Part shown: positions 13,864 to 55,503 of the stretch, piece by piece
How positions within the stretch are numbered: the stretch's first letter is position 1
How the letters are laid out: every line of letters starts with the position of its first letter
From: a virus
IMG/VR virus record: IMGVR_UViG_3300045988_174823
DNA: 64,000 nt
Reading direction: 5' to 3' (one strand)
Notes under the pieces: model-generated
Seen by the model: only the letters and a program-made list of their open reading frames with translations
Told to the model about the DNA's origin: nothing
Database searches by the model: none
Translations under genes and position numbers: made by a program

Positions 13864-14703
13864 TTAATGTGATAATTTTTTATCCTCCATTTTCGGCATT
13901 TCGCTGGCCATCCAGCTGGAAAGGTTCGACCCCGACGAAGCAATCAACAGGTCCTTTTGTAGAGCCTTTACCAACGATTCTATTTGTGCGATATTTACCA
14001 CGCCGCGGTTTTCACCGCCGTTGAATGAAGCCTTATCGCCCTTTACGGTGAAGGTGGATTTACTGTTCTTGGTCTTATACGAAAGGGAATCGCCCTCTAA
14101 TGTAACCTCAACACCCTCTTCCGTATCAACGCCGTCGATAATATTGGCCACTATTTTTTGAGCGCTTGTAACTTGCACTGATTTGGTTCCTGAAACGCTA
14201 ACGTCGCCGTCGGAGTACAAATTAACCTTAGAATCGCCATTGGGCGATGTTACTTTGATGTTGAGTTCACCCGGCGTATTTGCTGTACCGGAGACCATGA
14301 TGTCTATTTCGCTATTGGCGGCATCCAATATAAACTCGACTATTGAATCGCCAATTTGCTTTCGAAAACGCCGTTGACCAATCTGTTGTTGGTCCAATTC
14401 GGTTAGGTTTAGATAATTAACAACCACAGGCCATTGTTGTAAATCATCTACTACCCATATTACTGGCGTGCCAAACGATTCAGTATCTACTGGAAATTCG
14501 ACCATTTGCAAAACCTCCGGAGCAATTGGCACATTCTGGTATATGGAACGTCCCGGACCGCCTTGAATAGTTACGGTACAGGTACGTAAACAGTTTTCTA
14601 TGTAGGTTTGACGATCTACATCTGTTAGCGGTAAAACAACGTATCCTACGCCAGCCGTGGCATACAACGGCCTCTTTTGTGGCGTTTGTGCATTAACCCT
14701 CAT
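13864..14703 (-). CDS. putative baseplate central spike/hub protein (gpV/gp5-like beta-helix)
   Basis: 279 aa. The C-terminal half has repetitive short beta-strand segments ('VSGTKSVQVTSAQKIV...VEVTLEGDSLSYKTKNSKSTFTVKGDKASF'). It lies next to the M23 hub protein. Confidence 0.4.
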   Translation of the reverse strand: MRVNAQTPQKRPLYATAGVGYVVLPLTDVDRQTYIENCLRTCTVTIQGGPGRSIYQNVPIAPEVLQMVEFPVDTESFGTPVIWVVDDLQQWPVVVNYLNLTELDQQQIGQRRFRKQIGDSIVEFILDAANSEIDIMVSGTANTPGELNIKVTSPNGDSKVNLYSDGDVSVSGTKSVQVTSAQKIVANIIDGVDTEEGVEVTLEGDSLSYKTKNSKSTFTVKGDKASFNGGENRGVVNIAQIESLVKALQKDLLIASSGSNLSSWMASEMPKMEDKKLSH

Positions 14704-16576
14704 TTAATTCCTCCTCCGTCATGTAAAGATTTGTTCGCGTTTCCAAGACCTGTTTCTTGCTCCAAAAGTAGTCCAGCACTTCCTTACGAATCTTAAAATC
14801 AGCGACAAAACGAAACAACTCGTTTGGATAGCCTTCCGAATTCTTGACGCCAATATTTTTCCAAGAATCCTGATCGCCAAAATCAACAATATCGAAGTAG
14901 CTATAAGGCAAATTCTTGTCGTATTCTCCATTACGCCAAGCGCTTTCGATATTGCGCACAAACATACCGTGTGAAACCTGAAGTGACGTTGTACGCTGAA
15001 TGGAATCGCCAACGCTTTTAAACGTGTTGGAGACCTGTTCAACGTAATATAATTCTCCTGTAGGAACGAAATACACCCACGAACCACGTTTTATACGACG
15101 ATCGCCGTAAAGCGTTATCGTTCCCTGTCGTGTAAAGGGTACGTAGATTGTGCTTTCGATAAGGTATTTAAGATCCAATAAACAGCGATAGTGAGAACGT
15201 ATCACGTTTTCTTTCGTAGTATCGGCAACTTCCTTATCTTGATTGTGAATGGCCGAACTGCCATCGGCTATTAGATTCACGTAATTGCTCTGAATATTAC
15301 AAACACGTGAACCAAACAACGCTGCCATCTCAGGGAAGAATACAGCAGGTATGCCGCCAATATCATCGTTGTTGTTAAACCCAACACTGGCTGCTAAGCG
15401 ATACCAAGAATACGCTGTGTTCACGCTCCACGTCAGCGACGTACTCAGTACCTTGTTTGGGTGTATCGACAAATAGCCGTTGTTGCTGTAAAGTGCATCG
15501 GCGTAGGCTTCCTTAACGGCTGCAGCATCGAATGGTGGCCGACGAGCAATGAAGTAATATTGATCGCCCCACGTATCGCCCATAAACTCCACAAATGGTT
15601 TTTGGCATACCTTATTGAACCAATTCAACAGCGAACCTGTCGAGTTGGTGATTGTAGTATCGAATACTTGACGAAAAGCGGCGTTGTCGTCAATGATTAT
15701 CTTCACTATTTGCCAAATACCCGGCAATAAATCACTGGTAGCGCGCGCGTTTTCAGGTGCCGAGACTTTTTCTATTTCAACAGGTTCCGTAGCGTTATTG
15801 GAGTAGGGTAATTTCTCGTCGCTTCCAGCCCTTAATTCCGCACGCCACAACCAATTTCTTCGCCATTCGTCATTTGTGGCAAAGTTATCATTCCCCTGCT
15901 CAGGACGATAGCCAAGTTTTTCAGATTGCGGCCAACTGTAGGGGGCCACCTGATCGTCGTAGGCAAACTGATATTTTTTATCCTGTTCAGATAATTTAAA
16001 ACTGCAACGACTCATGAACTGCGCAGGCATAAGCCATTCGCCACTGCCTGGCAAACCTATTTGGATGTGCAAGTGCGGACCTGTGGTATCACCCGTGTTT
16101 CCTGTTGTAGCGATAGCGGTTCCGGCTTTAATCCATTCCCCCTTCTTTGTATTACTGTAAACACTATCCAAGTGCATCAGCCAAACCTCTACGTAAGCGC
16201 CGTTGCGTATAGATTTTTCAGCTAATGCGTTGCGCAACGCTTTCTTGGCAATAGAAAAACCAAAGCCAATATCGCTGGAGGCTATGGCATTAATATCGGG
16301 CCATTGAGCAGGAAACAGTAGCCGTATATAAACGCCTCCAGACTTCTTTGGATTGGTATTTACTTCAGCTACAAGGCAATATTCCGGAGCCAGCAATACC
16401 GTCCCAATGGGCAATGCAAAATCCAAACCACGATGATAGCTCACTTTCAATTTATCGCCAATTTGTAACTTGCGATGCCCCTGTACGCACGAAACAACAA
16501 TAGGGCAATCGGGGGTTCCGTAGCCTTGTATCCAATCTTTCCTCCAAACAGGAAATACTGCCAAATCACTTGCCAT
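14693..16576 (-). CDS. tail/baseplate hub protein with N-terminal M23 (LytM-type) peptidase domain
   Basis: 'SYHRGLDFALPIGTVLLAP' matches HxxxD, and 'GNTGDTTGPHLHIQIG' matches HxH. These are the canonical M23 motifs. Confidence 0.75.
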   Translation of the reverse strand: MASDLAVFPVWRKDWIQGYGTPDCPIVVSCVQGHRKLQIGDKLKVSYHRGLDFALPIGTVLLAPEYCLVAEVNTNPKKSGGVYIRLLFPAQWPDINAIASSDIGFGFSIAKKALRNALAEKSIRNGAYVEVWLMHLDSVYSNTKKGEWIKAGTAIATTGNTGDTTGPHLHIQIGLPGSGEWLMPAQFMSRCSFKLSEQDKKYQFAYDDQVAPYSWPQSEKLGYRPEQGNDNFATNDEWRRNWLWRAELRAGSDEKLPYSNNATEPVEIEKVSAPENARATSDLLPGIWQIVKIIIDDNAAFRQVFDTTITNSTGSLLNWFNKVCQKPFVEFMGDTWGDQYYFIARRPPFDAAAVKEAYADALYSNNGYLSIHPNKVLSTSLTWSVNTAYSWYRLAASVGFNNNDDIGGIPAVFFPEMAALFGSRVCNIQSNYVNLIADGSSAIHNQDKEVADTTKENVIRSHYRCLLDLKYLIESTIYVPFTRQGTITLYGDRRIKRGSWVYFVPTGELYYVEQVSNTFKSVGDSIQRTTSLQVSHGMFVRNIESAWRNGEYDKNLPYSYFDIVDFGDQDSWKNIGVKNSEGYPNELFRFVADFKIRKEVLDYFWSKKQVLETRTNLYMTEEELNEG

Positions 16577-26112: not shown

Positions 26113-26152
26113 TTTGGTCTGTTTTGCGAGTCGTAACGGTAAGACGAGGAAA

Positions 26153-26527
26153 CTACTCCTCGACGGCGACAGCGGCCTTGTATTTCTTTACCAGATAGGC
26201 TGCCATCAATTTGGCGTTCTTCTTGAACTTCTTGTATTCGTCCTCAGGGTACTCAGCCTCGGCGGCAGTCTCGAGCATCTCTTCGAGCGACATGGCGCGA
26301 ATCTGGTCGATGATGGCCTTGTCCTGGTCCTCGGCTGGTTCAGCGGCCGGAGCCTCCTCTTCCTTTGCAGCTTTACCAACGACCGCCCATTCAGGGAGCG
26401 TCAGCAGATGACGGGCGCAGGCTTCAGATACGTTGATTTCGCCATTGTGGTCGATTTGAATAGTACCGTCAACAGGAACGGTAAGACGCGAACCGTACAG
26501 GGACGCGTTACTGGTTTTCAGTTTCAT
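26153..26527 (-). CDS. hypothetical head-associated protein (acidic)
   Basis: 124-aa ORF immediately after the capsid gene terminator. Confidence 0.45.
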   Translation of the reverse strand: MKLKTSNASLYGSRLTVPVDGTIQIDHNGEINVSEACARHLLTLPEWAVVGKAAKEEEAPAAEPAEDQDKAIIDQIRAMSLEEMLETAAEAEYPEDEYKKFKKNAKLMAAYLVKKYKAAVAVEE

Positions 26528-26543
26528 GGTTTACGATTTAATG

Positions 26544-26575
26544 AAAAAACAGGAGCGGGGCTACCCCCACCCCTG
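26544..26575 (-). terminator. rho-independent terminator after the major capsid gene
   Basis: Minus strand CAGGGGTGGGG-gtag-CCCCGCTCCTG followed by TTTTTT (plus A-run 26544-26549), about 25 nt after the stop at 26600. Confidence 0.7.
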
Positions 26576-26599
26576 TTTCTCGGTTGAACGATTGTTGCG

Positions 26600-28087
26600 T
26601 TAGTTGGAAGCGCGACCGATGTTGATGATACGAACCATCTTCTTCGGTGCGTACAGGAACGGCGTACCGTACAGCAGCACCATGAAGCGGTATGCGGGCG
26701 ACAGAATCGCCAGGTCCATCTTCATCAGCGGAGCCAGCTGAGCGAACTCGATGACCTCGTTGTCGAACTGTACCAGGAACGCCTGGTCGCAGTCGGGCAG
26801 GAAGTAGTTGTTGTCACGGCACAGATCGCCGGCAGCGCCTGCATAGCCAAGTTTCAGCTCGGCCACCGAAATGTCGAAGATCGGGTAGAACTTGCTGTCC
26901 TTGGTACCGCCTTTCTTCGTGCGGTAAATGCGATAGCCCGTAGCCGGGTGCGCATTGTCCACGATCGAGAACTTGAGATCGACAGCCGATCCTACCGTAA
27001 CGACAACCGGGATCTCGTTAACCACCAGCGACGACTCACCGTGGCGGTTGATGGCAGCAACTGCGTAAACGTAGTCGCCAGCATCCTCCGAATTGAACTT
27101 CGAGGTCGTCACGCCGGGCATAACTGCAGTCGGAGTGTTGGTATCCCACGCGGGAGCAGCAGGCGACTTCGGATGCGTGGACTGAGCGCCAGCCATCTTG
27201 AACGGCGCCTTCTTGAAGAAGACATCGTAGTTGAGGCCGATGCGGCCGAACTGCGAGTCGAATGCCTGAACGCGCTGACCCATGATACCGGCGCTGGTCT
27301 GGGCGGTGTTAGGCTGGATGAACTTGTTGCCATAGAACGTCTTGACGAAGTCCGACAGAACGGCGGGGGGAGCGTACAGCTCGGTTCCGAGACCGTAGTT
27401 CTCGACGATCGAGTTGGCAGCGCTCTCGATGGGATCCTCGGTCAGGCCACGACCGCGAAGGTCGATCACGTTCTCGGAGTTGAGGTAAGCGTCCAGACCG
27501 CTCCATGCGTCCGACTGCAGCTGCTGAGCCAGCAGACCGTTGAACTCCTGCGGGATGATGTCCGAGTTGCCGTAGTACAGCGACTTGTTCAGCTTGCGGA
27601 GAATCCACAGCGTACCGTCCTTGATGGTACGCTCCATGATGTTGCCCACCATCGTGTTGACGAGGGTCATCTGGTGCGTAACGGACTTGGTAACGCCGAG
27701 ATACTTCACGAGCTGAGCCCGGCGGATGTAGATCGAGTCTTCCTCGTCGGGGAGTTCGCCCTCGTTGGTGAAGCCACCGCGGTCAGCACCATACGATGCC
27801 AGCTGGTTGTACTCCTCAACGGTGTTGTAGGCGGCCTTTTTCGGCAGGTTCTTCCAGAGAACGATGTCGCTCTCGCGGAACGTCAGGTGTTTCAGAGTAC
27901 GCTCCAGCGACTCCACCTTCAGCGGAGCACCCGAAGCATCGGTCAAGTTCGTCGTTTGACGACCCGTGATGTCGGTTGCTTCGAGGGCTTTGTTCAGCAT
28001 AGCGACCTCTTCCTGACTGGACGAGCCGTACTGGGCACCACGTGCTTGGATGCCATAGTCGGCAAGATTGATAGAAAGTCTGTCCAT
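26600..28087 (-). CDS. major capsid protein with an internal FN3/Ig-like insertion
   Basis: 495 aa, directly downstream of the protease-scaffold gene, with strong GC3 codon bias and a strong terminator. Residues about 305-405 ('GDYVYAVAAINRHGESS...GYRIYRTKKGG') look FN3-like. Confidence 0.7.
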   Translation of the reverse strand: MDRLSINLADYGIQARGAQYGSSSQEEVAMLNKALEATDITGRQTTNLTDASGAPLKVESLERTLKHLTFRESDIVLWKNLPKKAAYNTVEEYNQLASYGADRGGFTNEGELPDEEDSIYIRRAQLVKYLGVTKSVTHQMTLVNTMVGNIMERTIKDGTLWILRKLNKSLYYGNSDIIPQEFNGLLAQQLQSDAWSGLDAYLNSENVIDLRGRGLTEDPIESAANSIVENYGLGTELYAPPAVLSDFVKTFYGNKFIQPNTAQTSAGIMGQRVQAFDSQFGRIGLNYDVFFKKAPFKMAGAQSTHPKSPAAPAWDTNTPTAVMPGVTTSKFNSEDAGDYVYAVAAINRHGESSLVVNEIPVVVTVGSAVDLKFSIVDNAHPATGYRIYRTKKGGTKDSKFYPIFDISVAELKLGYAGAAGDLCRDNNYFLPDCDQAFLVQFDNEVIEFAQLAPLMKMDLAILSPAYRFMVLLYGTPFLYAPKKMVRIINIGRASN

Positions 28088-28126
28088 GATTCGGAATTGA
28101 TTATGTTATGGAAATTGTTTGGGTGT

Positions 28127-29668
28127 TTACTCTACTACCTCGTACCCGGTCTCAGCCTTGAGACGGGTAATGATGTTTTTGGGGAGACCGTCAGCAGGAC
28201 GCGCCTCAAACGCCAAAAGCGCATCGCCGTACTCTTTGTCGTAGCCTTTGGCGAACGATGCCTGGTCAAGCAGCGCAGCAACGGCACGGGGATTCTCGCG
28301 GAACGAGATACGAGTGGTGCTGCCACCCTTTTCGATGTCGCCCTTGTCGGCACCCTTAGCAAACGCACGGTCGATAACCGTAGCCGAGCGCAGCGATTTC
28401 GGACGCGGCACCTCGCTGCCGTAGCGTTCCAGTTTAGCGGCGAAGCCCTCAATAACCTCGGTCTGGCCTTTGACGACGTCCTCCAGTTCAGCAATACGCT
28501 TAGCGTCCTCAGAGCGTTTCTGGCGAAGATCGTTCACTAAGACGGCCGTAGCTTTGATGTACGACTTGAAGTCGTTACCAACACCCTGAATAGCTTTCAG
28601 GAGATCAGCGTTATCACCCTTTTTCATCTTGGCACCGTTCTTGTCGCACTGCTCAAAGCCTTCGTCGTCATCCTCGGTTTCTTCTTCAGATTCCTCCTTC
28701 TTGCCTGCCTTGGCATTACGCATGTTGGCGGCGTTGTGACGCGGCTCGTCATCATGGGTTTCGTCCTCCTCGCCCATTTGACCGTCGGCGTCATCACCTT
28801 TCTGCACGTCTTCGGCATCAAAAGCGTTGCCCTCGGGCGCAAGCCCCAAAGCGGCATATGCCTTCTCGATGTCCTCGGAAGTGATGGATTTGCGTTTGTT
28901 CATAACCGATATATTTTTAATTAGTGTGTACACTTCATGCGCGTTCGGTATTGTAATATTTGGAATATCACGGAAGATAGCTTCCATGACGGAAGATTTG
29001 GAAAACGTTTTTTTCGGCTGGCCATCGACTGACTCCGGCATTAACGCCGCACCGGATTCTGTGCTTACGGCCTTTTTCTCGGTTTTGCCACCGCGCTCTT
29101 CGGCATTATCCTCTTCTTCCTCCAAATCCACCTTTATTCCGTCAGCGTCAATCTCCCCCTTTATAATATTCACAAACGTATGTGGATTCTTAGGCATATG
29201 TGTTACTGCAACACCTGTTATTACAGCCTTAACGATCTTGTTGTAAAGGGGTGATTTCTTGTCGTTAGAACCGCGCTTCAGAACCTTTCCTTCGATGGAA
29301 TACCCAAGACGACGCGTTTTACTGTCTTCCTCAAGGGTTTTAGCAAGTTCATAAACTTCATTGGCCATAGGCGATGAAGCATACAAATCGCTTTCAATCC
29401 AAAGCCCCTCGGGGCGGAGTTCGACCTTTGACGGCTCGCCAATAATAGCAGCTGGAGAGTTCTTGGCTTGGTGATGCCAATTAACCATGCCTGAATTCTT
29501 CAGCGGCTCAACATCAAAACCAGAAGGATCCAGATACTCACCATCAGCGTCACGATCCATAGTTGAAGCGATACCGCCAATACGCATAACAGGTTCTCCT
29601 GCTTCGTTCGTAGCTTTTTCAATGCGTCCAATAGGACACCAAAAATTGAATCTATCGTCCTTAAACAT
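28127..29668 (-). CDS. prohead serine protease (HK97/S78-like) fused to an acidic scaffolding domain
   Basis: The N-terminus 'RIGGIASTMDRDADGEYLDPSGF...VNWHHQ...IIGEP...GLWIESDL...LGYSIEGKV' matches the S78 pattern. The C-terminal half is Glu/Asp/Lys-rich and coiled-coil-like. Confidence 0.7.
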   Translation of the reverse strand: MFKDDRFNFWCPIGRIEKATNEAGEPVMRIGGIASTMDRDADGEYLDPSGFDVEPLKNSGMVNWHHQAKNSPAAIIGEPSKVELRPEGLWIESDLYASSPMANEVYELAKTLEEDSKTRRLGYSIEGKVLKRGSNDKKSPLYNKIVKAVITGVAVTHMPKNPHTFVNIIKGEIDADGIKVDLEEEEDNAEERGGKTEKKAVSTESGAALMPESVDGQPKKTFSKSSVMEAIFRDIPNITIPNAHEVYTLIKNISVMNKRKSITSEDIEKAYAALGLAPEGNAFDAEDVQKGDDADGQMGEEDETHDDEPRHNAANMRNAKAGKKEESEEETEDDDEGFEQCDKNGAKMKKGDNADLLKAIQGVGNDFKSYIKATAVLVNDLRQKRSEDAKRIAELEDVVKGQTEVIEGFAAKLERYGSEVPRPKSLRSATVIDRAFAKGADKGDIEKGGSTTRISFRENPRAVAALLDQASFAKGYDKEYGDALLAFEARPADGLPKNIITRLKAETGYEVVE

Positions 29669-29700
29669 GTTTACGGCGTTATTGTTACCAACATTATACT

Positions 29701-29804
29701 TGTAATGATCACTATTGGAAACGACGGTAATGTCCTGGACTACCTCGAATATCCTTCCGTTATTTTATCGCCGATTCCGGGATACAGAGAGTTGGTGAGT
29801 GAAT
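29701..29804. repeat. inverted repeat IR-L of the fibre inversion switch
   Basis: Reverse complement of 30595-30698, matching at 103/104 positions. The single mismatch is at 29787. Confidence 0.95.
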
Positions 29805-30178
29805 TTCCATTCTTTATAAAAGAAATGGCAGCTAGCGGCGAAACCAATAAGATCTCTTTTGACAGGAAGATATCTCAAAAAGCCAAACTATACGTTACTG
29901 GTAAAGTACACGCTACCCAAAGTATATTTAGTGATATTATGCTAAACATACCACTTACCCCTGTGAATATGAGTGTTAGTAATGGAAAAGGAGCGTTAAT
30001 AGATATATCGAGTGCTTTTTTTGATTCAATTGGCGACAGCATTTCCGCACGTATTTTAGTAACAAGCGTTGATCTATCGCCGGATGGTATTAGTGCCTTT
30101 AATATTGTTTTACAGACTAAGAATATTTTGCCTAATGATATGTATTACTCAACATTGAATATATATTGTAATGAATAA
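29705..30178 (+). CDS. promoterless alternative C-terminal cassette of the fibre gene (silent in this orientation)
   Basis: The first 34 aa ('MITIGNDGNVLDYLEYPSVILSPIPGYRELVSE') are encoded by IR-L and duplicate an internal fibre segment. The remaining 124 aa are a diverged homologue of the fibre C-terminus. Confidence 0.8.
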   Translation: MITIGNDGNVLDYLEYPSVILSPIPGYRELVSEFPFFIKEMAASGETNKISFDRKISQKAKLYVTGKVHATQSIFSDIMLNIPLTPVNMSVSNGKGALIDISSAFFDSIGDSISARILVTSVDLSPDGISAFNIVLQTKNILPNDMYYSTLNIYCNE

Positions 30179-30179
30179 A

Positions 30180-30211
30180 TTAATCCCCCCTCATGACGAG
30201 GAGGGGATTAA
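30180..30211. terminator. bidirectional hairpin between the two convergent cassettes
   Basis: TTAATCCCCCCTC-atgac-GAGGAGGGGATTAA. It is flanked by A/T on both sides and centred within about 5 bp of the midpoint of the invertible segment. Confidence 0.6.
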
Positions 30212-31678
30212 TTAATAATTAGAGTACAGTTTCAAAAACATATAACTTGAAGAAGTTGAGTCTATATTTCTTCTTTGAACCAAGAGGTTTAATCCAACAG
30301 CGCCAGTTGTACCCACACGCGTCTTAAAACTTACTACCAAGAGCCTAATGGTTCCAACAGTTTTATAATCCGACGATGAAGATAAATGCACCGAACTTAC
30401 TTCTACTAAAACTCCCTGTCCAGTGTCAGGATCAATGTTAGGAACAGTAAGCGGTATATTATAAAACGCGTCTGAAGTAGGATCGCTAGTTTGCCGTATT
30501 GATCCACATAACATTATTTTCGCATTGCGGGGAATTTCTCTGTCGAAGTTTACAGTAACCAAGGCTCCAGTTGTAGTGCCTGTAATTAACGACCATTCAC
30601 TCACCAACTCTTTGTATCCCGGAATCGGCGATAAAATAACGGAAGGATATTCGAGGTAGTCCAGGACATTACCGTCGTTTCCAATAGTGATCATTACATA
30701 CGACGGGCCTTCGGTAATGAGTGTGCCATCATCCCTGACTGGATACATTGTTGCTGAGAAGATTCGGTCGCTGCCAGATTGTAAGCATTGCACAAATCCG
30801 CTCATAAACGCTACGGCAGGAACCTTAAAAAGGGGAAAATACGCCTCAATTAAGGCAGTTGGATTTGTAACAAGGATCGCCTTTATTTTGCCAACTGCTT
30901 TATCACCCCAATCAGCGCTGATAATTTGTTTACCTATTCGTTCACCTCCTTCAATGGCTATGACGTCTATTCCTGAACCGCCAGCACCAATTTGCGTCCA
31001 TTTAATAAGAGTCGTTATGGCGTTTCCTATATAAAAATTATTACTTCCTACGTCTTGTGCAAAATAGTTGATTTGTCCAGCGCTTACCTTTTGCAATATG
31101 CCGATCAAGGCTTCGCTCGTAGGTTTTTGATCGCCTCCAGCGCTGTAGAACGGAATTATTCCTCCAACGGGGAGTTTTTGTACTCGGGCGTTGTTAACAG
31201 TGGCTTTAAAGTCTGTAATATTCAACGGAGTCATATCGGCATCCATACGAAATGCCAAACCGTTATTTACAATCGTATCAATCCATTGCTGGTCGGTTAA
31301 TGCCGTAGGAGGATCTTGTGTAAAGCCGTTTCGGCTGTATATAATATTGTCAACAATATTAAAGACAATGCCATAACACGTAGATCCTGCCCAACATACA
31401 AAACCATTGTAGGCTGCACCGTTGGTAATAATTTTCACTGCGCCATTACCAACTATACGATACATGTTTTGAAACGCCTGGAGTATAGTGCTCGCCGACG
31501 TAATCGAGGTAGCGCCAGTAGTCCGATTGACAAAACCCGTAAGTTTGGCCTGCATGGCATTAAACAGATTGGCAATCTGCCGCGACGTAGCCTTTTCGGT
31601 AGCCGATACCTGAAATTCTTCGTTTCCAGTGAGAGTCGAACGCTTCGTCAGCTTCGACATGTCTATAAAAGTAGGCAT
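30212..31678 (-). CDS. fibre / receptor-binding-type virion protein with a switchable C-terminal domain
   Basis: 488 aa. IR-R lies at codons for 'VMITIGNDG...KELVSE'. The C-terminal 127 aa are encoded inside the invertible segment. Confidence 0.7.
   Translation of the reverse strand: MPTFIDMSKLTKRSTLTGNEEFQVSATEKATSRQIANLFNAMQAKLTGFVNRTTGATSITSASTILQAFQNMYRIVGNGAVKIITNGAAYNGFVCWAGSTCYGIVFNIVDNIIYSRNGFTQDPPTALTDQQWIDTIVNNGLAFRMDADMTPLNITDFKATVNNARVQKLPVGGIIPFYSAGGDQKPTSEALIGILQKVSAGQINYFAQDVGSNNFYIGNAITTLIKWTQIGAGGSGIDVIAIEGGERIGKQIISADWGDKAVGKIKAILVTNPTALIEAYFPLFKVPAVAFMSGFVQCLQSGSDRIFSATMYPVRDDGTLITEGPSYVMITIGNDGNVLDYLEYPSVILSPIPGYKELVSEWSLITGTTTGALVTVNFDREIPRNAKIMLCGSIRQTSDPTSDAFYNIPLTVPNIDPDTGQGVLVEVSSVHLSSSSDYKTVGTIRLLVVSFKTRVGTTGAVGLNLLVQRRNIDSTSSSYMFLKLYSNY
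30595..30698. repeat. inverted repeat IR-R of the fibre inversion switch
   Basis: Reverse complement of 29701-29804. Confidence 0.95.
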
Positions 31679-32635: not shown

Positions 32636-35014
32636 TTATTTCCTTGTGATTATCTTCGAGCGGTTGAACACAATCATAAATGAGTTGCCGCAGTAATTAC
32701 CATTAGGCTGTATCATGGCGTCGTACCCTTGAAGCGCAGCATACACACCAAGGACTTCGTCGTATGAACGCGAAGATTGGTATATAGCCGCATAAATATC
32801 CTTATCGGGGTCACCGACGCTATTAGAGCTAACTTTGCGCGCTGCGGCACTCTTTTCCTGATAGACCTTGAACGCTTCAGCGCGCTCCTTTTGTAAGCGA
32901 TTCACCTCATCGTCAAGGTTCTTGACAGCTTCTTTCACGGCATCCTCGATTTTACCGTAGTGCTCGCGCATAATCCACCCCTTGAATTGGCGGACAGGAT
33001 AGTTGTACGGGCGCACGAAACCGTTCTTGCGCTTAATAGCATCGTTCTCGTAACGATAGCGCGAAAACACAAATCGCTCTGAAGTGTTAGGCATCTTGAT
33101 GACAAAATCGCCTGTTCCATTACCCTTTTCGGTAATGGTTCCGCCGTTAGCCGTTACCCAACCGCGGAGGTGATTATTCATAAAGTCGTCAAACTTCATA
33201 TATGACGGATTGCCGTCATCGTCAATAGCACCCCAATCGATCACTTGGTCGATTTGAAGCGGAATGTCGGTATATGCCGCGTCATCCCAATGCATAGAGG
33301 TTTTAACCCTTTTCTCGGTGTTGGAGGTGATATTGTGAAGTTCTGACGACAGCTGGTTATAAACGGCTTCGGCTTCTTGTTCTTCTTTCAGAGCCTTCTC
33401 AACTGCAGGAGATTTTCGGGCTGAAAGTTGTTGTATTTCCTTACGAGCATCTTCGACGGTGATGACTTTTGCCGAATCATCCAAAACAGCTTCAATAATA
33501 GCACCATCATCGCTTGCGTAACCGAGTGCGTTCTTATAAGAAGATGTTGATTTGTAGCCTGACGGCGTCTTATTGGCATTGGCTGAATCATTGACGTGAA
33601 AATAGATGCCTTCGCCGCAAACACCTTGTGTACCAAAAAAGCACGTGTCGTTGTACTTAAAATCGTCAGTGTAATACTCCGAATCTGTTCCGCGAGGCTG
33701 TACGCCACGGAACATATGATACTTTGATTTGGCCACTTTGGCCCAGAAAGTGTTATCATCTACAACGTCCGGACGTGCGTCGAAACCACGAGCAGCGCAA
33801 ATGTTAGATAACATTTGCCAACCTACTTGCCTATCGGTATTTGTTAATCGGTCCGTAGGGGTATTGCCATTGACACTCTTGTAAAGGGAATCCAGTTCAT
33901 CTTCCGAGAATTCGCGATACATATCCTCCTCGGACTTCAGGTTACGTGGTTTGACCTTACGATTAGCGCGCTGAATTTTAACTTGATAAATCCCTCGTAT
34001 TCGGTCCAAATCATTGAAACGTCCCTCAATGATAGCACGTATTTTAGATTTGGCGCCGAGTTTTCCAGCGTCAAAAAACGCTAAGATTTCGTCCTTACGG
34101 GCTTTCAAAGCGTCAATCTGGTCGATGAAGTCTTGCGACGTAAGATGGGCAACGATATTCGGATTGTGTTTTATCATACCATCCCAGTCGATCTTGTTGC
34201 CGAACGTCTTAGTCGAACCCTGTGCTCGGTAATTGAACAACCCGCCATTATCGACGCGGTAAACCTTGCCGGCAGCATCTACCAAACAATTGTCGTTTTG
34301 GTATATATCCCAATTGGCTAAAAAGGTGTCAACAACAAAACCCTTAGCCATAGCGGCATAATCCTTAGCCTGGGGTTCTGACACTCCGCGCATGTAGTTA
34401 GAGATAAGCGTCAAATCAGTTCCGTCGTCATACATTTCGTAATCCGGCGTGTCTAATCCAAACAAACTGTACACCTGTGCAACGTAGTATTCCGCGGCGA
34501 CGTGACCGCGGTTAGTGTTCTTTGAACTCTTAACGACAAACTCGCGACCCTTGGCGTCCTTCATCAGGACAGCTCCCGTGGAACCGCCTAATTTCTGTAC
34601 AAAGGTCAGCTGTGAAGGATCAGCCGGGAACATTTCGTTCACCTCCTTCTCCTGTTTAGCCAGTATAGCTTTGGAACGAAAAGCCCCTTTTCCAACAGGT
34701 ATTCCTTGCGGATTCTTGTAAACGCGCCAATCGTACGTCGTCTTTGCATTAGGCGTCAATGTCCAAATATACACCACGCCATCGACTACCTTTGTTTGGC
34801 CAGGCATGATAGCCTTTACAATGTCCGGGTCCTGTTTAACGCCGTGAAGGTGATCATACAACGACTTGGTTACATACAAGCTGTACTCGTAGTCATCGAC
34901 GAACTCGGAACGGGCCTTGTACGCTTCACAGGCTTTCTCCAATACGGCGTCAGAAACAGCACCCTCGGCATTACGGAGGGTGAAAATTTCCAACGCTTTT
35001 CTCAGTTCGTCCAT
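32636..35014 (-). CDS. large multidomain protein: PI3/4-kinase-like atypical kinase domain plus PARP-like ADP-ribosyltransferase-like domain
   Basis: 'GGSTGAVLMKDAKGREFVVK...FLANWDIYQNDNCLVDAAGKVYRVDNGG' resembles the kinase catalytic loop and the DxG/IDNG motif. 'MFRGV...GEGIYFHV...AIIEAVLD' resembles the ART core. Confidence 0.4.
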   Translation of the reverse strand: MDELRKALEIFTLRNAEGAVSDAVLEKACEAYKARSEFVDDYEYSLYVTKSLYDHLHGVKQDPDIVKAIMPGQTKVVDGVVYIWTLTPNAKTTYDWRVYKNPQGIPVGKGAFRSKAILAKQEKEVNEMFPADPSQLTFVQKLGGSTGAVLMKDAKGREFVVKSSKNTNRGHVAAEYYVAQVYSLFGLDTPDYEMYDDGTDLTLISNYMRGVSEPQAKDYAAMAKGFVVDTFLANWDIYQNDNCLVDAAGKVYRVDNGGLFNYRAQGSTKTFGNKIDWDGMIKHNPNIVAHLTSQDFIDQIDALKARKDEILAFFDAGKLGAKSKIRAIIEGRFNDLDRIRGIYQVKIQRANRKVKPRNLKSEEDMYREFSEDELDSLYKSVNGNTPTDRLTNTDRQVGWQMLSNICAARGFDARPDVVDDNTFWAKVAKSKYHMFRGVQPRGTDSEYYTDDFKYNDTCFFGTQGVCGEGIYFHVNDSANANKTPSGYKSTSSYKNALGYASDDGAIIEAVLDDSAKVITVEDARKEIQQLSARKSPAVEKALKEEQEAEAVYNQLSSELHNITSNTEKRVKTSMHWDDAAYTDIPLQIDQVIDWGAIDDDGNPSYMKFDDFMNNHLRGWVTANGGTITEKGNGTGDFVIKMPNTSERFVFSRYRYENDAIKRKNGFVRPYNYPVRQFKGWIMREHYGKIEDAVKEAVKNLDDEVNRLQKERAEAFKVYQEKSAAARKVSSNSVGDPDKDIYAAIYQSSRSYDEVLGVYAALQGYDAMIQPNGNYCGNSFMIVFNRSKIITRK

Positions 35015-36804: not shown

Positions 36805-37608
36805 TTACACTTCTACAGCGTCAAAGTCAATATCAAATTTCTTATATACAATGCGCAACTCGGGCACACCATTGATCGGCTTCTTCTTTTCATCAACACG
36901 AGCGTTAAGCGGCCAACGCTTCAAGATGATATCATGCGCACGTTGAACGCGCTCACGACGTTCGTACACATCCTGGAGACCGCCACCTTGTGTAGCTTCC
37001 TTGTTCATCTTACTCTGGAGCAAGAACCGTACGAATCGCGCATACACGATGCCGAGATACATACATTTTAACGAATAGTCGATATCACATTTCAACTCCA
37101 ACCGCTCATCAAAGTCCAACTCTAACGTGCGAAGACCCTTGAACACGATAAGGTGTGGAATACCGCCGTATTTGAAACGCGGACTAACGTCGATGCAATT
37201 CCAATCAAAAGCACTTTTGCCCATGGTGCCATATTCGAAGTCGGTTTTCATCACCTCTCGGTCGAATTCGTTGAAGAATTCAGCCAACTCTTCATGGGTT
37301 TTCAACGACAGTCCGCATTTGGCTTCACCGTCAATTGAGTAGAAGAAGTTGGCGATATCGTCATCCATCACCACAACGGGATACCCCTCGCGCAAGTAGG
37401 TATTCTTGCAGAAATTGACTACGTAGCTGTAGCCACGATTCGAGGCTGGAAGCACAATGAGGCGTTCGCGCTCATGCCCGGCTTCAACATATTTTTCAAC
37501 ATCCTCTTTTTCTACCACGATGTGGTAATCCACGCCGCCCTTTTTCAACAATCGAGTCGTGACGCATTTAGGGCGGTTTTTAGACACGACAAAGAATTGA
37601 CAGTTCAT
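36805..37608 (-). CDS. GT-A-like glycosyltransferase (paralogue of 55500-56315)
   Basis: Start placed at the ATG at 37608, 2 nt after the upstream TGA; the track ORF starts at 37638. DxD-like 'VVVMDDDI' is present. Blocks shared with the paralogue are 'KCDIDYSL...QGGGLQDVY...RWP' vs 'KEDFALAC...AAGGCSVY...TFP'. Confidence 0.45.
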   Translation of the reverse strand: MNCQFFVVSKNRPKCVTTRLLKKGGVDYHIVVEKEDVEKYVEAGHERERLIVLPASNRGYSYVVNFCKNTYLREGYPVVVMDDDIANFFYSIDGEAKCGLSLKTHEELAEFFNEFDREVMKTDFEYGTMGKSAFDWNCIDVSPRFKYGGIPHLIVFKGLRTLELDFDERLELKCDIDYSLKCMYLGIVYARFVRFLLQSKMNKEATQGGGLQDVYERRERVQRAHDIILKRWPLNARVDEKKKPINGVPELRIVYKKFDIDFDAVEV

Positions 37609-37610
37609 AC

Positions 37611-38291
37611 TCAAAATGGTAAGTCGCCCTCGTACCAAATTTCCTCAGGCGGGTTCTGTTCTATAAAACGTTGATAATTGTCCAGTGTACTTTCTAACGA
37701 TGGATAAAACCTCATGAACAACTCCCACTTAACGTCAAACATATCATCACACGATACGCGGCGTTTCATCAGTAGGCTTTCGCTATTATAGCACTGCACG
37801 CAGACCTGACGACGGCCTCGTAGTACGTACGAATAGGGAAAGTCGCGATAGTATTCCGCACCAGACGCTGTATTATACACCACATCATGGATAAACTGGT
37901 TGAACGGGTGTCCTGCGCCGAGAGGTGCCAGTAACGTATAACCGGGATTGCGGTGCATAAACTTCCGCAAATGATCGCGAAGCGCTTGTTCGGCGAAATT
38001 AAGGCCGTCATTCCCGAATTTGGCGCGTAAGTACGTATAGACGCTCTCATAATTACAGTCCTTGGAATGGGCCTGAAAATCGCTACAACGGACATTTTCT
38101 AACTCCAGGTCCAGACAATCCATGGCTATACCCAGAAAATTGTACAGAAGCCGCTGCTCTGAAACGCGCTTTGGGTCGCTATCTACAGTAAGCACCCGAA
38201 CGTCATATTCGGGTGCTACTAAAACGTGACAAGCACTCATCAGGAGATCACCCGCGTGTGGCTCGACACAGAGGTATTTTATTTTTCCCAT
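37611..38291 (-). CDS. PIG-L/LmbE-like putative deacetylase (divergent)
   Basis: 'YLCVEPHAGDLLMSACH...DVRVLTV' compares with the AHPDDE motif, and 'GAGHPFNQFIHDVV' with the HPDH motif. Confidence 0.4.
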   Translation of the reverse strand: MGKIKYLCVEPHAGDLLMSACHVLVAPEYDVRVLTVDSDPKRVSEQRLLYNFLGIAMDCLDLELENVRCSDFQAHSKDCNYESVYTYLRAKFGNDGLNFAEQALRDHLRKFMHRNPGYTLLAPLGAGHPFNQFIHDVVYNTASGAEYYRDFPYSYVLRGRRQVCVQCYNSESLLMKRRVSCDDMFDVKWELFMRFYPSLESTLDNYQRFIEQNPPEEIWYEGDLPF

Positions 38292-39238
38292 GGCCGTTTG
38301 TATATCTTCTCGACGCAGGGGCCGTCCTTCGATACGTCCTCAGCCATACGGCGAATTTCTGGCGTGATAGGCGGGAGCGTTTTCTTACCCATCTTATCAG
38401 GCAGGAAACCGACACGGACGCTGACATGTGTACACCCCTGACACGGACGGAACCGACGATCGTTGTTGTACAGCATCACGCGGGCAGCATGAAAGCGCGG
38501 ATGGTTCCAGAGGTCTTCGATAGGCATGTCGTGGATGTTGGCGATAGGGTACTCGCCGCGAAAGTCGTCGCAGCACAAGCACACCTGGCCGTTCCAACGC
38601 ACATCCAGTTCGCGGAACGGAAAAGTACATCGTTTGTTGTTGAACGAGTCGTCGAGCGGGAACGCTGCGCCACAGTGGTTAGCCAGACGACGCGTCATCT
38701 TGTTGGTATCGTCTTCGGCGATAGGCGGCAACAGACAGATACGGCGGCCCTGCTTGGGGTAGTAGTACGGAACGCCCGGTTCCAGCGTAACGACGTTGTA
38801 TTTCTCGATGTCGATTTTCTCGACGAAATTCCAGTCACCCTTAGCCGTATAGCAGTCCACCAGAATATCATTCATGCCGGCTTCAAAAAGACGGTCTAAA
38901 TATTCCGACGTATCCTTGGCGTGGTTCATACCGTACCCGTTGCTGTACATATGAAATACGGCTTTGGGCAGGTGTTTACGGAACGTAGCCACGATGTCGA
39001 TGAATGCGGGGTTGAGCGTCGGTTCGCCGTGCATAGCGAATACGAACTTACATTTCCACCCTACGCGGGCTACCTCTGAAGCGATACGCTCGGCGGTTTC
39101 AACGGTCATGAAATTCCACGGCTTAGTGCCTTTTTCGCGCATGCCGTGGAGACCGCAAAACGAACAACCCAGATTACACCCCTCCGTCGGTTCAATCTGC
39201 ATAGTGAACGGAGGGTCTTGTACGATTTTGTTTTTCAT
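38279..39238 (-). CDS. radical SAM enzyme with C-terminal SPASM/twitch-like Cys cluster
   Basis: 'EGCNLGCSFCG' matches CxxxCxxC. The C-terminus carries 'CTFPFRELDVRWNGQVCLCCDDF...CQGCTH'. Confidence 0.8.
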   Translation of the reverse strand: MKNKIVQDPPFTMQIEPTEGCNLGCSFCGLHGMREKGTKPWNFMTVETAERIASEVARVGWKCKFVFAMHGEPTLNPAFIDIVATFRKHLPKAVFHMYSNGYGMNHAKDTSEYLDRLFEAGMNDILVDCYTAKGDWNFVEKIDIEKYNVVTLEPGVPYYYPKQGRRICLLPPIAEDDTNKMTRRLANHCGAAFPLDDSFNNKRCTFPFRELDVRWNGQVCLCCDDFRGEYPIANIHDMPIEDLWNHPRFHAARVMLYNNDRRFRPCQGCTHVSVRVGFLPDKMGKKTLPPITPEIRRMAEDVSKDGPCVEKIYKRPWEK

Positions 39239-41268
39239 TATTTGGTAACTTTAATGTTAAGTTTCACGTTCTTTAACTTTGGGTTCTTAAACTGGCGTTT
39301 GATAGGCTTGATGAAAGCGCGGGTTGCAGGGTCCCAATCAAAGCCATCAGGAACGTGGTTGACTGTACACCGGCAATTGTGAACCACAATTCCATCGGCA
39401 ATGTAGCTTTCATCTTCGGCAACTGAAATATTGTACAATTTAGTGTACTTTTTAGATCTCGGAACTTGTTTAATGTATAAAACCTTCACACCACGCGAAA
39501 CTATTTGCCCCCGGTGATTTTTGAACAGCCGTTTCAGGCGGTTGTAAACCATATCGCCGTGGTTGTTTATCTCATCTTCAGTGAAGCGGAATGTCTCATA
39601 GCCGTAACACTCCAAAATGTCCTTATCGCGGTTGGAATCGTATTCCGGATCGTTGTGCCATTTTTCGCCGTCAGCCTCCAAAACAATCTTGAGATCGGGA
39701 ATCAGTAAATCGGGGAAATACCCCACAACATCGTTGCGGAACTTTCCGTTATTTTTCAAGAACACCCCTGTCTTAGCTTCAACTCCTAACGACTTACACA
39801 GATACTCCAACTTGCGCTCGATGAACGACCGTTTCTTACCATTGGTAGAATTAGTCTTCTTCAGCGCCTCAGCCATCCAAGGATACTCACCTTGATATTT
39901 ATCTTCGATAGCTTTTCTTGCTCTGGTGGTAAGTTTCTGACGATCGACAGCACTCATATTGGCATAACGAACAGCCATCTCTTCTTTGACTTTCTTACTC
40001 ATGTAAGAACGGAACTCTGTGTCTTGCCATTGCGAGACGCACTGTTCGCTCCGGTGACAAGCTATACACAGCCCCCTCTCCAAAAGAGTATCGCTGGCTG
40101 AAACGTATATTGGCATAAACGAACCGCATTTTTCACAACAAACACCTTCGATTGTTATCAAATCGCCTGTTTTCAATGAAGCAGCCTCTCGCCATTCACC
40201 GTTTGAAAGAATTGGATGATTTCCTGTTATACGACGCACCTTCCGTACCTTTTTACGCCCTAAAAGGTTTTTGACGGCATAATAGATGTCGTACAGGGGT
40301 TCATCCTTATGATCGTGAATAATCACTTCCGTAACAGGCCTAAACCTCCCTCGGTGAGTCAAAACCATATCCCCTTTCTTTAGAGAAGATATGTTTCTCC
40401 ATCCGTTGATGGTGTACACCTTTGTAGCCGGATTATTGAAACAATAGGGGTGCGTTGGGTCAATCGTAGGGAGCCATTCTGCCACCTTACGACCGATGTT
40501 GTTACCGTTAGCGATAAGGTCTGCCAAACGGAACAGTTTCGGTTTCGAGGTAGGGTCTTCGGGGTCTTCTAAGTACAACTCCCGGCACTTAGCGCACGCG
40601 CCTGGATAGACGTCGAAATACACTTTGGCGTCAGGACCGTGTTGCTTGAAAATACTTTCGGCACGGCCCACGTTGTAGGCTTCGTGTAGAAGGTAGTACG
40701 CAATACGCAGCCAATCGCGTCCCCAGTCTTGGGTAAGGTTTCCGAGTTCGCTGGCTATATACCGGGCTCCCTTACGGAGTTGAACAGCTTGAATGGCCTT
40801 GTCTTTTATTTGTTGACGTATTTCTGATTGTTGACGGAAATTCGATTTGAGTACAGCGTTGCGTGTTCCGGTGACGATACGATTACCAAGCGACGTGATG
40901 TCGGTATAGGCACGATTCTTGAGGTAGTTGAGCGCGTTTTCTTCCTGTTCGGTAAGCGGAACAAAGTTTCCCGATTTCAAGAACTGGAGAAACTGCTTGT
41001 AATTCATCTTCTTGGCGCGAGTGTCGCCAATTGCTTCGGCCAGTATTCCAAACAAAAAGGCGTGTTCGATGATGCCCTTTGAGTTCTTGTACTTATCGAC
41101 GTTGACCCCTGAAGCTACCAAGATATCAATTTCAGACTGCGTGAGGTAGTCCAATCCGACGTGCTTGGCAATAAAGAGATATTGCCAACGCCGGAGAATA
41201 CCGACCATGTCGTCTATTTGACGGTTGTTGAAAATCATAACTTTTCGACGTCTTTTCGGGGAATCCAT
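39238..41268 (-). CDS. Mu-F / SPP1-gp7-like head morphogenesis protein interrupted by an intein
   Basis: The exteins give '...YPGACAKCRELY...PTHPY|CRCTVNHVP', which reconstitutes the Mu-F family CxxC and HPxCRC motifs. Confidence 0.75.
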   Translation of the reverse strand: MDSPKRRRKVMIFNNRQIDDMVGILRRWQYLFIAKHVGLDYLTQSEIDILVASGVNVDKYKNSKGIIEHAFLFGILAEAIGDTRAKKMNYKQFLQFLKSGNFVPLTEQEENALNYLKNRAYTDITSLGNRIVTGTRNAVLKSNFRQQSEIRQQIKDKAIQAVQLRKGARYIASELGNLTQDWGRDWLRIAYYLLHEAYNVGRAESIFKQHGPDAKVYFDVYPGACAKCRELYLEDPEDPTSKPKLFRLADLIANGNNIGRKVAEWLPTIDPTHPYCFNNPATKVYTINGWRNISSLKKGDMVLTHRGRFRPVTEVIIHDHKDEPLYDIYYAVKNLLGRKKVRKVRRITGNHPILSNGEWREAASLKTGDLITIEGVCCEKCGSFMPIYVSASDTLLERGLCIACHRSEQCVSQWQDTEFRSYMSKKVKEEMAVRYANMSAVDRQKLTTRARKAIEDKYQGEYPWMAEALKKTNSTNGKKRSFIERKLEYLCKSLGVEAKTGVFLKNNGKFRNDVVGYFPDLLIPDLKIVLEADGEKWHNDPEYDSNRDKDILECYGYETFRFTEDEINNHGDMVYNRLKRLFKNHRGQIVSRGVKVLYIKQVPRSKKYTKLYNISVAEDESYIADGIVVHNCRCTVNHVPDGFDWDPATRAFIKPIKRQFKNPKLKNVKLNIKVTK
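39376..40443 (-). mobile_element. intein (356 aa) carrying a Zn-ribbon and a Vsr/DUF559-type PD-(D/E)xK nuclease domain
   Basis: It starts with 'CFNNPATKVYTINGW', has block B 'ITGNHPIL', and ends 'IADGIVVHN' followed by +1 Cys. The insert carries 'CCEKCG...CIACH' and 'YFPDLLIPDLKIVLEADGEKWHNDPEYDSNRDKDILECYGYETFRFTEDEI'. Confidence 0.8.
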
Positions 41269-47551: not shown

Positions 47552-47836
47552 TTAGCGTGAATATACGTAGGTCTTACGGTCAGCCCACACGAAATTATAA
47601 CTCATATCCCCCTGAGGATACTCGGTAATGGTAATACCATCAGCAGTGGTTTCCCGCTCGATGCGCCATCCTGCCTGCTGTTGACCTGTGCCAATAGGCG
47701 CATAACCGCGGTAGATAACGTCGCCCCCTGAGGCGTCAACAATCGGTTTCGGCATAGCATCGCTCAGCAATTGGACAATGGGCGCGGTGTTTTTCTCGTT
47801 ACTCGTCATGGTGTATTGCTTTTTGTAAGTATTCAT
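47552..47836 (-). CDS. hypothetical small virion-module protein
   Basis: 94-aa ORF overlapping the portal gene 3' end by 38 nt. Confidence 0.45.
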   Translation of the reverse strand: MNTYKKQYTMTSNEKNTAPIVQLLSDAMPKPIVDASGGDVIYRGYAPIGTGQQQAGWRIERETTADGITITEYPQGDMSYNFVWADRKTYVYSR

Positions 47837-49599: not shown

Positions 49600-49923
49600 T
49601 CAACACAACAGTTTCAAAATGTCGTTCCGCGCTGTTTTACGAATTATCAATGCCTGATGAAGAAGGTCGCCCCATACCGCTATCTGGTAACCATTCCACG
49701 TGTAATAATCCGTTTGATCGTCGTACGAGCCATTCCATTCACCGTCGTGGCGTATGTCAGCGACGAGGCGTTTAAAACGCGCTGTTTCTTCGGTGGTAAG
49801 GGGTGATATGAAAGTGCCGACGACTACTAATCGTGCGGCACTTGTGGAAAGATCATCGGCCAAAATCTGAAAGTCGATGCCCATAAAATCGCCCGTTTCC
49901 AACGGCGTGTGAAAGGTTATCAT
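49600..49923 (-). CDS. hypothetical protein
   Basis: 107-aa ORF with a 4-nt overlap upstream. Confidence 0.45.
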   Translation of the reverse strand: MITFHTPLETGDFMGIDFQILADDLSTSAARLVVVGTFISPLTTEETARFKRLVADIRHDGEWNGSYDDQTDYYTWNGYQIAVWGDLLHQALIIRKTARNDILKLLC

Positions 49924-54978: not shown

Positions 54979-55503
54979 CTATTTAATCGTTGAACCGAAC
55001 CCTCCGGCGTCGCGCATCGAAGGCGTCAACGTGTCGGTTTCCTCCACTTCAATATACGGCGCAGGGACGATGACCAACTGGGCTACAACGTCTCCTGCCT
55101 TAAATTCCTTGGTGCTCAGATTCACGTTTTGAGGCTTCATCCCCGCAACCTCACCGAAGACGTTGGAAAGTAATCCACAAACGCTCTTGAAGAACCTGTG
55201 AACCAGCGTAGGCAAATGCCACGTCTTCTTGTAACGAGCACGTATCGTGCCGCGGTAGCCAGGGTCGATAACCCCTGGAGCATTACACATCACCAGGTCC
55301 ATTTTTGAACAACGCGAATTCGGGACCAGCAACCCGCAATACCCCCTGGGAATTTCGACGGCGATGCCGGTATCGTATTCGATGTAATCTTCAGTTTCCT
55401 TTACGGTTACAGCCACGAGGTCCAGGCCGTTATCCTCACCACCAGGATGAGCATACGTCGGCAGTACGGCTTCAGGGTGTACTTTCTTGAATTTTACGGT
55501 CAT
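54979..55503 (-). CDS. dut: trimeric dUTPase with ~30-aa insertion between motifs III and IV
   Basis: Motifs I 'DNGLDL', II 'PNSRCS', III 'GVIDPGYRG', IV 'GDVVAQLV' and V 'RDAGGFGST'. Confidence 0.85.
   Translation of the reverse strand: MTVKFKKVHPEAVLPTYAHPGGEDNGLDLVAVTVKETEDYIEYDTGIAVEIPRGYCGLLVPNSRCSKMDLVMCNAPGVIDPGYRGTIRARYKKTWHLPTLVHRFFKSVCGLLSNVFGEVAGMKPQNVNLSTKEFKAGDVVAQLVIVPAPYIEVEETDTLTPSMRDAGGFGSTIK

Follow-up and report, generated by a model that had tools for sequence, protein, structure and literature searches.

A probable inversion switch without a detected invertase in the putative fibre gene of a virulent-type gut phage

Can a phage in which neither an integrase nor an invertase gene is found change the tip of its fibre by turning a piece of its own genome around, and what would catalyze the turn? 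The question is raised by a locus in a 64,000-nucleotide (nt) stretch of viral DNA, IMG/VR record IMGVR_UViG_3300045988_174823. This whole stretch, referred to here as the window, is part of a ~100-kb phage genome in which nearly all genes lie on the minus strand. A gene in the window for a putative fibre or receptor-binding protein (RBP) of 488 amino acids (aa) contains one arm of a long inverted repeat, and the other arm lies beyond the end of the gene, next to the prohead protease gene. An earlier description made from the letters of the window alone, hereafter the sequence-only reading, had proposed that recombination between the two arms swaps the protein's C-terminal domain. Comparison with related genomes makes it highly probable that a genuine inversion switch is present and in use. 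That it is a two-state switch in the fibre gene of a ~100-kb virulent gut myophage, operated by homologous recombination with no dedicated invertase, is the account that we consider probable, with a good deal less assurance.

The two arms form a 104-nt inverted repeat that is 99% complementary and encloses 790 nt (Table 1). They differ at a single position: 29787 is G in the left arm (AGA, Arg) and its counterpart in the right arm is A (AAA, Lys). Every other repeat in the window is at most 35 nt long and at most 75% identical, so this is the sole long repeat of high identity and, with nothing comparable in 64 kb, it is far beyond chance. The left arm, which lies 33 nt from the start codon of the prohead protease gene, opens a 157-aa plus-strand open reading frame (ORF; 29705-30178) that continues into a 124-aa tail, tail B. 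This tail is homologous to the 127-aa tail presently fused to the 488-aa protein, tail A (31% identity, E=2e-16). The two cassettes face each other across a central hairpin, whose minus-strand RNA has a folding energy of -21.9 kcal/mol (z=-4.6; 0 of 200 shuffled sequences fold as well) and which contains a terminator-like match on the minus strand at 30205-30185. The hairpin presumably acts as a terminator in both directions; being terminator-like both ways, it would follow whichever cassette is expressed. The structural features described in the sequence-only reading have all held: a repeat exact but for one base, the same 34 residues encoded by both arms (apart from one R/K difference), a plus-strand tail homologous to the fused C-terminus, convergence of the cassettes on a central hairpin, and an odd location directly upstream of the prohead protease and capsid genes. 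Two promoter-like elements lie at the left end of the locus. A sigma-70-like match (TTTCCA-17-TATAAT, 29693-29721, minus strand) spans the outer boundary of the left arm, a short way upstream of where the protease gene starts, and a TAATGTTG element resembling the Bacteroidetes -7 box is found just 5' of the protease start codon. Since the arm is the same in either orientation, inversion would leave both elements unchanged.

Both orientations of the segment are found among relatives. The survey of the repeat covered 19 loci, seven of them added by a metagenome scan. Tail A is fused and tail B silent in the window and in L001-3, L006 and L094. The 99,339-nt contig L010 has the gene order of the window and encodes a 487-aa protein that consists of the constant part and tail B, with tail A silent; L097 likewise has tail B fused and tail A parked. 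The alternative in-frame fusion that the sequence-only reading expected from an inversion is thus found in nature, and near-isogenic pairs of genomes confirm it. L011 and L014, 98,845-nt MEGAHIT k141 contigs from consecutively numbered samples, show no difference over 7.46 kb outside the arms, and in the inner 800 nt one is the exact reverse complement of the other but for 1 base. A second pair, L103 and L104, belongs to the clade of the window itself; these genomes are 99.9% identical, with the segment inverted. Because the assembly k-mers of the near-isogenic pairs exceed the arm length, the orientation calls rest on arm-spanning reads.

The same alternation is seen in the proteins. Homologues of the silent ORF include 158-aa ORFs with tail A, and a fragment in which the constant region leads into tail B. 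The full-length homologues fall into 79 clusters, 52 with tail A, 12 with tail B, 14 with tail C and 1 with tail D; tails C and D define a sister clade (the C/D clade) with a 96-nt repeat. In a tree of the constant region the A and B forms are interleaved, and most B forms have as their nearest neighbour an A form that is 95-99.7% identical. By Fitch parsimony on the neighbour-joining tree, the 64 A/B sequences require at least 9 changes and the 15 C/D sequences require 1.

The silent ORF (157 aa, including 33 repeat-encoded residues) is predicted to fold, with a predicted local distance difference test score (pLDDT) of 82.7 and a predicted template modelling score (pTM) of 0.74. About 8 of the 10 beta strands of this model lie in the cassette and form a beta-sandwich. 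The parked cassette is open in all 15 repeat-bearing genomes examined, and the disabling mutations that the sequence-only reading had named as evidence against a switch were not found in them. Compared with L001, L003 and L006, cassette B of the window carries 15-18 nonsynonymous and 0-1 synonymous changes. Four loci, L004, L005, L095 and L096, share a deletion of ~265 nt (window ~29700-29970), to which one arm was lost together with the first half of cassette B; what remains of the cassette is frameshifted or further eroded, and these loci are natural orientation-locked variants in which tail A is fixed. L098, of the C/D clade, has lost the outer 58 nt of the distal arm and retains a 38-nt repeat (3543-3580 / 4381-4418) together with an intact parked cassette. 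In the C/D clade the parked frame is immediately preceded by a stop codon and has no ATG, so the cassette forms no gene of its own, and none is called. The intact frame, the lack of an independent gene in the C/D clade and the nonsynonymous-only divergence are evidence, at the level of sequence, which says that the parked cassette is used. Other relatives are arranged differently. L101 is without any cassette, and the more distant L102 (5217-5906, minus strand; ERZ27280865 k141_441002) has a convergent 229-aa ORF between the fibre and protease genes. This ORF is 33% identical to the last 227 residues of the fibre, there is no inverted repeat there, and it could represent either a gene in its own right or a cassette left stranded.

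Readings that dispense with a programmed switch have to be set against these data. The reversed cassette might be the relic of an old duplication, inverted rarely and by accident, with no adaptive use. Such a history would suit the relative that lacks a cassette, the reversed paralogue of L102 with no repeat, the four loci that live on without one arm, and the predominance of tail A, 52 against 12. It is nevertheless very improbable in our view: at least 10 independent flips are counted, some of them between 99.9%-identical genomes; cassettes are intact where the repeat is present and decayed after the loss of an arm; the arms are kept identical; and the changes in the silent cassette are nearly all nonsynonymous, whereas neutrality predicts that about one quarter would be synonymous. 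We give still less credence to the plus-strand 157-aa ORF as an independently expressed small protein, such as a fibre chaperone or a second tip subunit. The arm of the A/B clade has an ATG (29705), which leads gene callers to annotate a gene of 157-158 aa, and the stand-alone paralogue of L102 also starts with Met; but the equivalent C/D frame, with its upstream stop and no ATG, is called by none, the ORF lies antisense within an otherwise unidirectional gene block, and 12 clusters have this tail as the end of the full-length protein. It is scarcely credible that the two orientations are assembly artefacts at the repeat. Assemblers can be confused by repeats, and L008, L009 and L013 are short contigs of low coverage that might be assembly bubbles formed from mixed orientations, their ends not coinciding with the arms; however, arms of 96-106 nt are shorter than the MEGAHIT k141, k127 and k119 k-mers and than typical reads, and each orientation recurs across independent studies and assemblers on contigs of ~99 kb.

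The nature of the switched protein is indicated by its predicted fold. No Pfam or PHROGs family was found for the 488-aa protein or the 157-aa silent ORF, a PDB profile sequence search with the 488-aa protein matched no chain, and a protein search returned a partial N-terminal match to the crAss-like cr108_1 alone. The AlphaFold2 model, built with 71 homologues, has a mean pLDDT of 78.5. Its N-terminus is poorly ordered yet strongly conserved, and is followed by several beta domains and a confidently predicted C-terminal beta-sandwich. Foldseek matched the model to two baseplate chains of phage 812 (9euf_5, E 4e-10, and 9euf_8, E 9e-7), to the R2 pyocin fibre 6cl6 (E 3e-5) and also to a phage receptor-binding protein; the matches in BFVD were to many annotated tail fibres, as well as to a Twort protein and to crAss-like proteins that are uncharacterised. 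The probability was 1.0 for the phage 812 chains, the R2 pyocin fibre and the BFVD tail fibres. The tip domain alone gave weak jelly-roll similarities and no significant match in PDB. The label "virion fibre" given by the sequence-only reading is therefore backed by fold similarity to phage 812, the R2 pyocin and tail fibres, and not by any Pfam or PHROGs family. These models support a role for the 488-aa protein as a virion fibre or receptor-binding protein; binding of a receptor and an effect on host range would be its presumptive functions.

Amino-acid change in the fibre gene is exceptionally frequent. Compared with L006 it has 68 nonsynonymous and 2 synonymous differences, with a ratio of nonsynonymous to synonymous differences per site (pN/pS) of 13.5, and it is the most positively selected gene of the locus. 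Ten clearly real flanking genes were compared, two short ORFs nested in longer genes being left out, and their pN/pS values are 0.01-0.6, save for a 792-aa gene (1.5) and a 138-aa gene (zero synonymous changes). The changes in the fibre cluster in residues 201-327 and the tail, and affect loops more than strands. This excess likely marks the 488-aa gene as the host-range determinant of the lineage, judging from sequence divergence. A diversity-generating retroelement was considered as its source and rejected: there is no reverse transcriptase (RT), no template repeat or direct cassette repeat, and the mutational spectrum is mixed, not adenine-specific. Given the mixed spectrum and the lack of an RT or template repeat, the nonsynonymous excess is attributed to selection. 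The 792-aa gene (32636-35014, minus strand), which lies upstream of the fibre block, is strongly mosaic between relatives, with a synonymous difference per site of 0.006 from L006 and 0.7 from L001; it has 17 nonsynonymous and 3 synonymous differences from L006 and belongs to no Pfam or PHROG family.

The agent that flips the segment was sought among the genes of the phage. Every ORF of at least 70 aa in the window was compared with Pfam, and no serine or tyrosine recombinase, resolvase, integrase or IS110-type enzyme was found among them. The relative IMGVR_UViG_3300045988_168225 (loci L006, L019, L035 and L072) has a complete genome of 98.8 kb with the same repeat, and Pfam detected no recombinase family in its remaining 49 ORFs (~35 kb). 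Of the immediate neighbours of the switch, the 138-aa protein matched no resolvase or recombinase family in Pfam, and a 174-aa protein that was considered as a small invertase was rejected, having no resolvase signature or match. The complete genome of the relative encodes a RecA-like protein (PF00154, E 8e-13, L035:17448-18581), as well as SbcC/D-like proteins, a UvrD-like helicase, DnaB and DNA polymerase III alpha. By synteny, the RecA-like, SbcC/D-like and UvrD-like genes should also be present in the source genome of the window, all of them outside the window.

The arms themselves carry traces of how they evolve. In 14 of the 15 repeat-bearing genomes they are 96-106 nt long with 0-1 mismatch within a genome, the exception being L098 with its 38 nt; between genomes they differ at up to ~12 positions, many of them synonymous. 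Arms that are alike within genomes yet divergent between them, at synonymous sites too, point to gene conversion over the whole arm, and from these sequences a single fixed crossover would not be expected to homogenize the arms over their full length. At position 42 of the C/D arm, both copies read G in L012 and C in L014, and L011 and L013 carry one of each; among such close relatives, the pattern resembles gene conversion from arm to arm caught in progress. Known crossover sites were also looked for. The Mpi motif ARACGTWCGT does not occur in the arms, and the Din-type core AAACC-NN-GGTTT of the 26-bp gix/cix/hix sites has no match with two or fewer mismatches in either arm; both are weak tests, and the sites of tyrosine invertases are too ill-defined to scan. 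With no recombinase found, a RecA-like protein encoded and the arms evolving in concert, homologous recombination is favored. We lean modestly toward it as the process that flips the segment, and with similarly modest confidence regard it as sufficient and the most economical mechanism, probably acting through the RecA-like system of the phage itself; the flipping enzyme is named here in that conditional sense.

The same switch might instead be flipped by a site-specific recombinase, either an invertase of the Bacteroidales host or an unrecognised enzyme of the phage, acting on a short core in the inner part of the arms. We take this to be possible and rather unlikely, and place the same tentative value on its corollary, that the rest of the 104 nt is kept identical through coding constraint and only occasional gene conversion. 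Every experimentally characterised phage fibre inversion switch known to us (Mu, P1, e14, p15B) uses an invertase. The best point for a short site is L098, which has kept an intact cassette with only the inner 38 nt of one arm. Moreover, no part of the arm is better conserved from the A/B to the C/D clade than its inner stretch CCGATTCCRGGATAC. That stretch, however, encodes SPIPGY, which is invariant or nearly so in a 71-sequence alignment that includes P0127, the homologue from the cassette-less L101; because SPIPGY is kept even there, protein constraint explains the conservation. A site-specific enzyme is also at odds with the lack of any recombinase domain in the window or the complete genome of the relative, with the absence of a Mpi-like or Din-like core, and with arms homogenised at synonymous sites over their full length, and a virulent phage would have to obtain the enzyme from every strain of its host.

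Some observations weigh against a fibre switch driven by homologous recombination, or against parts of that account. The search for recombinases relied on Pfam and, outside the window, on the genome of a relative, and would miss a host enzyme or a novel one. L098, with its 38-nt arm and intact cassette, is explained by a small specific site no less readily than by homologous recombination. Recombination between co-infecting phages could have raised the count of flips, the locus being visibly mosaic, and the orientations were compared between assembled contigs of different genomes. The assignment as a fibre rests on fold similarity, with a TM-score for the Foldseek fibre matches that is low, 0.33, and the gene lies in the head-gene region, adjoining the prohead protease gene on its upstream side and ~18 kb from the baseplate genes.

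If homologous recombination does drive the switch, its working would be as follows. Recombination between the 104-nt arms would turn the 790-nt segment around and join the constant 361 residues in frame to either tail A or tail B. The unused cassette would be parked, antisense and unexpressed, between the fibre and prohead protease genes, and the palindromic hairpin would close the reading frame in either state. The exchange would be catalysed by general homologous recombination during replication, using the phage RecA-like protein and the products of the associated nuclease and helicase genes. The phage population would then always include particles with two fibre tips, both apparently under strong diversifying selection, a situation that would fit bet-hedging on host receptors. 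A more far-reaching proposal is that a virulent phage uses general recombination as a programmed switch, with a gene-converted repeat of ~100 nt setting the rate per replication and giving two variants per burst. We consider the chances of this evenly divided; if it is true, no invertase, enhancer or lysogenic phase is needed for such switching.

In its logic the locus is like the G segment of Mu and the C segment of P1/P7 (also the P segment of e14 and Min of p15B): a segment flanked by repeats lies inside a fibre gene, a constant N-terminus is joined in frame to one of two receptor-binding C-termini, and the population is mixed, with both types of fibre present. An element with a Din-type switch encodes a serine invertase, consisting of a resolvase catalytic domain and a helix-turn-helix, normally adjacent to the segment, and has a Fis-bound recombinational enhancer. 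The present locus differs in that no Gin/Cin-type serine invertase was detected by Pfam in the window or the genome of the relative, and no Din-type core in the arms; the arms are 104 nt long, compared with 34 bp in Mu; the 790-nt segment consists of two domain cassettes and a common hairpin, with no U/U'-type assembly genes; and no integrase was found, the phage is probably virulent and the gene adjoins that of the prohead protease. The analogy to Mu G and P1 C drawn in the sequence-only reading thus survives as switch logic, but not in its machinery, as neither an invertase gene nor a crossover-site motif was found.

The mechanism may, by analogy, be closer to the RecA-dependent inversion of the sap S-layer locus of Campylobacter fetus, which moves a promoter between complete genes with homology blocks of ~600 bp. 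Both would involve inversion by general homologous recombination between opposed coding paralogues, leading to alternative surface proteins with no invertase; but the sap locus is bacterial and the promoter is moved, whereas here the locus is viral and a C-terminal domain is swapped over 104 nt of homology. Inversions within coding sequence that recode proteins are also known as intragenic invertons of gut Bacteroidales, or gene-altering inversions (bioRxiv 10.1101/2023.03.11.532203; PMC9881135). Prophage tail-fibre genes are an enriched class among them, and recombinase families are among the enriched neighbours (PMC9881135). They share with the present locus the recoding of a protein by inversion and the same ecosystem, but are chromosomal or carried by prophages and typically near recombinases, whereas this phage is of virulent type and none was found. 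A 2026 study presented its own viral candidates as the first putative invertons to be reported from gut viral genomes assembled from metagenomes (PMC13501310).

Retroelements of the Bordetella BPP-1 type likewise act on a phage fibre, diversifying its C-terminal receptor-binding domain with an excess of nonsynonymous change. Here the variation takes the form of two discrete cassettes and ordinary positive selection, with no RT or template repeat found. For the Herelleviridae phages we know of no inversion switch described. Their baseplate RBPs (phage 812, PDB 9euf; PMC13433997) are the best fold match of the 488-aa protein, and the capsid and protease of this phage are SPO1-like or Herelleviridae-like. 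The phage 812 chains differ, however, in sharing only ~11% sequence identity, with a TM-score of 0.33 and no match in PDB at the sequence level.

Phage host-range inversion switches have been textbook examples since Mu and P1, and those characterised are, to our knowledge, all on temperate elements with a dedicated invertase. In a non-exhaustive search of the literature, neither this locus nor any lytic-phage fibre switch that lacks an invertase was found to be described. The outcome known from Mu and P1 would here be achieved in an abundant gut lineage of virulent type, with natural evidence for frequent flipping and no invertase found. It would offer a concrete, testable case of lytic gut phages keeping pace with the phase-variable surfaces of Bacteroidales. 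Inverton screens keyed to repeats beside recombinase genes would miss such loci; if the account given here is true, "recombinase-free invertons" could be a general and overlooked form of host-range hedging in lytic phages. The minimal design, with two arms, two cassettes and one hairpin, could be copied for phages with switchable receptor specificity. Further cases within the fibre family are hinted at by homologues that match C-terminal parts only, at differing junctions. P0144, P0164, P0179, P0187, P0188 and P0190 are short proteins of this kind, in which the match to the profile starts at, for example, 171, 213, 290 or 346; they may be cassettes with other junctions, or simply fragments from contig ends. 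The family has only 72 representatives among 1.84 billion proteins.

Table 1. Features of the inversion locus, followed by other genes of the window
Feature	Position	Strand	Remarks
Fibre/RBP gene, 488 aa	30212-31678	-	ORF; presently fused to tail A
Constant part, codons 1-327	30698-31678	-	Part of 488-aa gene
Repeat-encoded codons 328-361 (34)	30596-30697	-	Part of 488-aa gene
Tail A, codons 362-488 (127)	30215-30595	-	Part of 488-aa gene
Stop codon of 488-aa gene	30212-30214	-	ORF
Right arm	30595-30698		Inside expressed 488-aa gene; encodes VMITIGNDGNVLDYLEYPSVILSPIPGYKELVSE
Left arm	29701-29804		Plus strand encodes same 34 residues, with one R for K
Invertible segment	29805-30594		790 nt; two convergent cassettes and central hairpin
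Silent cassette B	29804-30178	+	124 codons (29804-30175) and stop (30176-30178); alternative C-terminal beta-sandwich domain
Central palindromic hairpin	30175-30216		Between the two facing stop codons; from inverted-repeat search
Prohead protease/scaffold	28127-29668	-	PHROG 1028, head maturation protease, E 3e-32; flanks the switch, not part of it
Major capsid protein	26600-28087	-	48% identical to DAC19 and related Bacteroides thetaiotaomicron phages, ~40% identical to SPO1-like Bacillus phages
Baseplate J	10335-11594
M23 peptidase	14693-16576
676-aa protein, intein	39238-41268	-	Intein splicing domain and DUF559 endonuclease domain
Portal	47799-49574
Terminase-like protein, 905 aa, intein	56335-59052	-	Hint and LAGLIDADG homing-endonuclease domains

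The phage as a whole is probably virulent, as no integrase was found, and it probably infects a member of the Bacteroidales. Searched against GenBank phages for near-identical DNA, the locus gave no match. The lineage is common in human gut metagenomes: one protein of the window was found in 319 data blocks, and 96 of these contain contigs of 50-200 kb. Apart from the genes listed in Table 1, the window encodes a thymidine-hypermodification set, all on the minus strand (49920-50930, 36805-37638, 55500-56315, 38279-39238 and 54979-55503), the members of which are a 5-hydroxymethyldeoxyuridine (5-hmdU) DNA kinase, two TET-associated glycosyltransferases, a radical SAM/SPASM protein and a dUTPase/dCTP-deaminase-like protein. 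In relatives, a homologue of thymidylate synthase is found immediately beyond the limits of the window. G+C content within the window peaks in the capsid gene region (0.56), and two antisense ORFs on the plus strand over that region, 26948-28540 (530 aa) and 26114-26587 (157 aa), are probably spurious.

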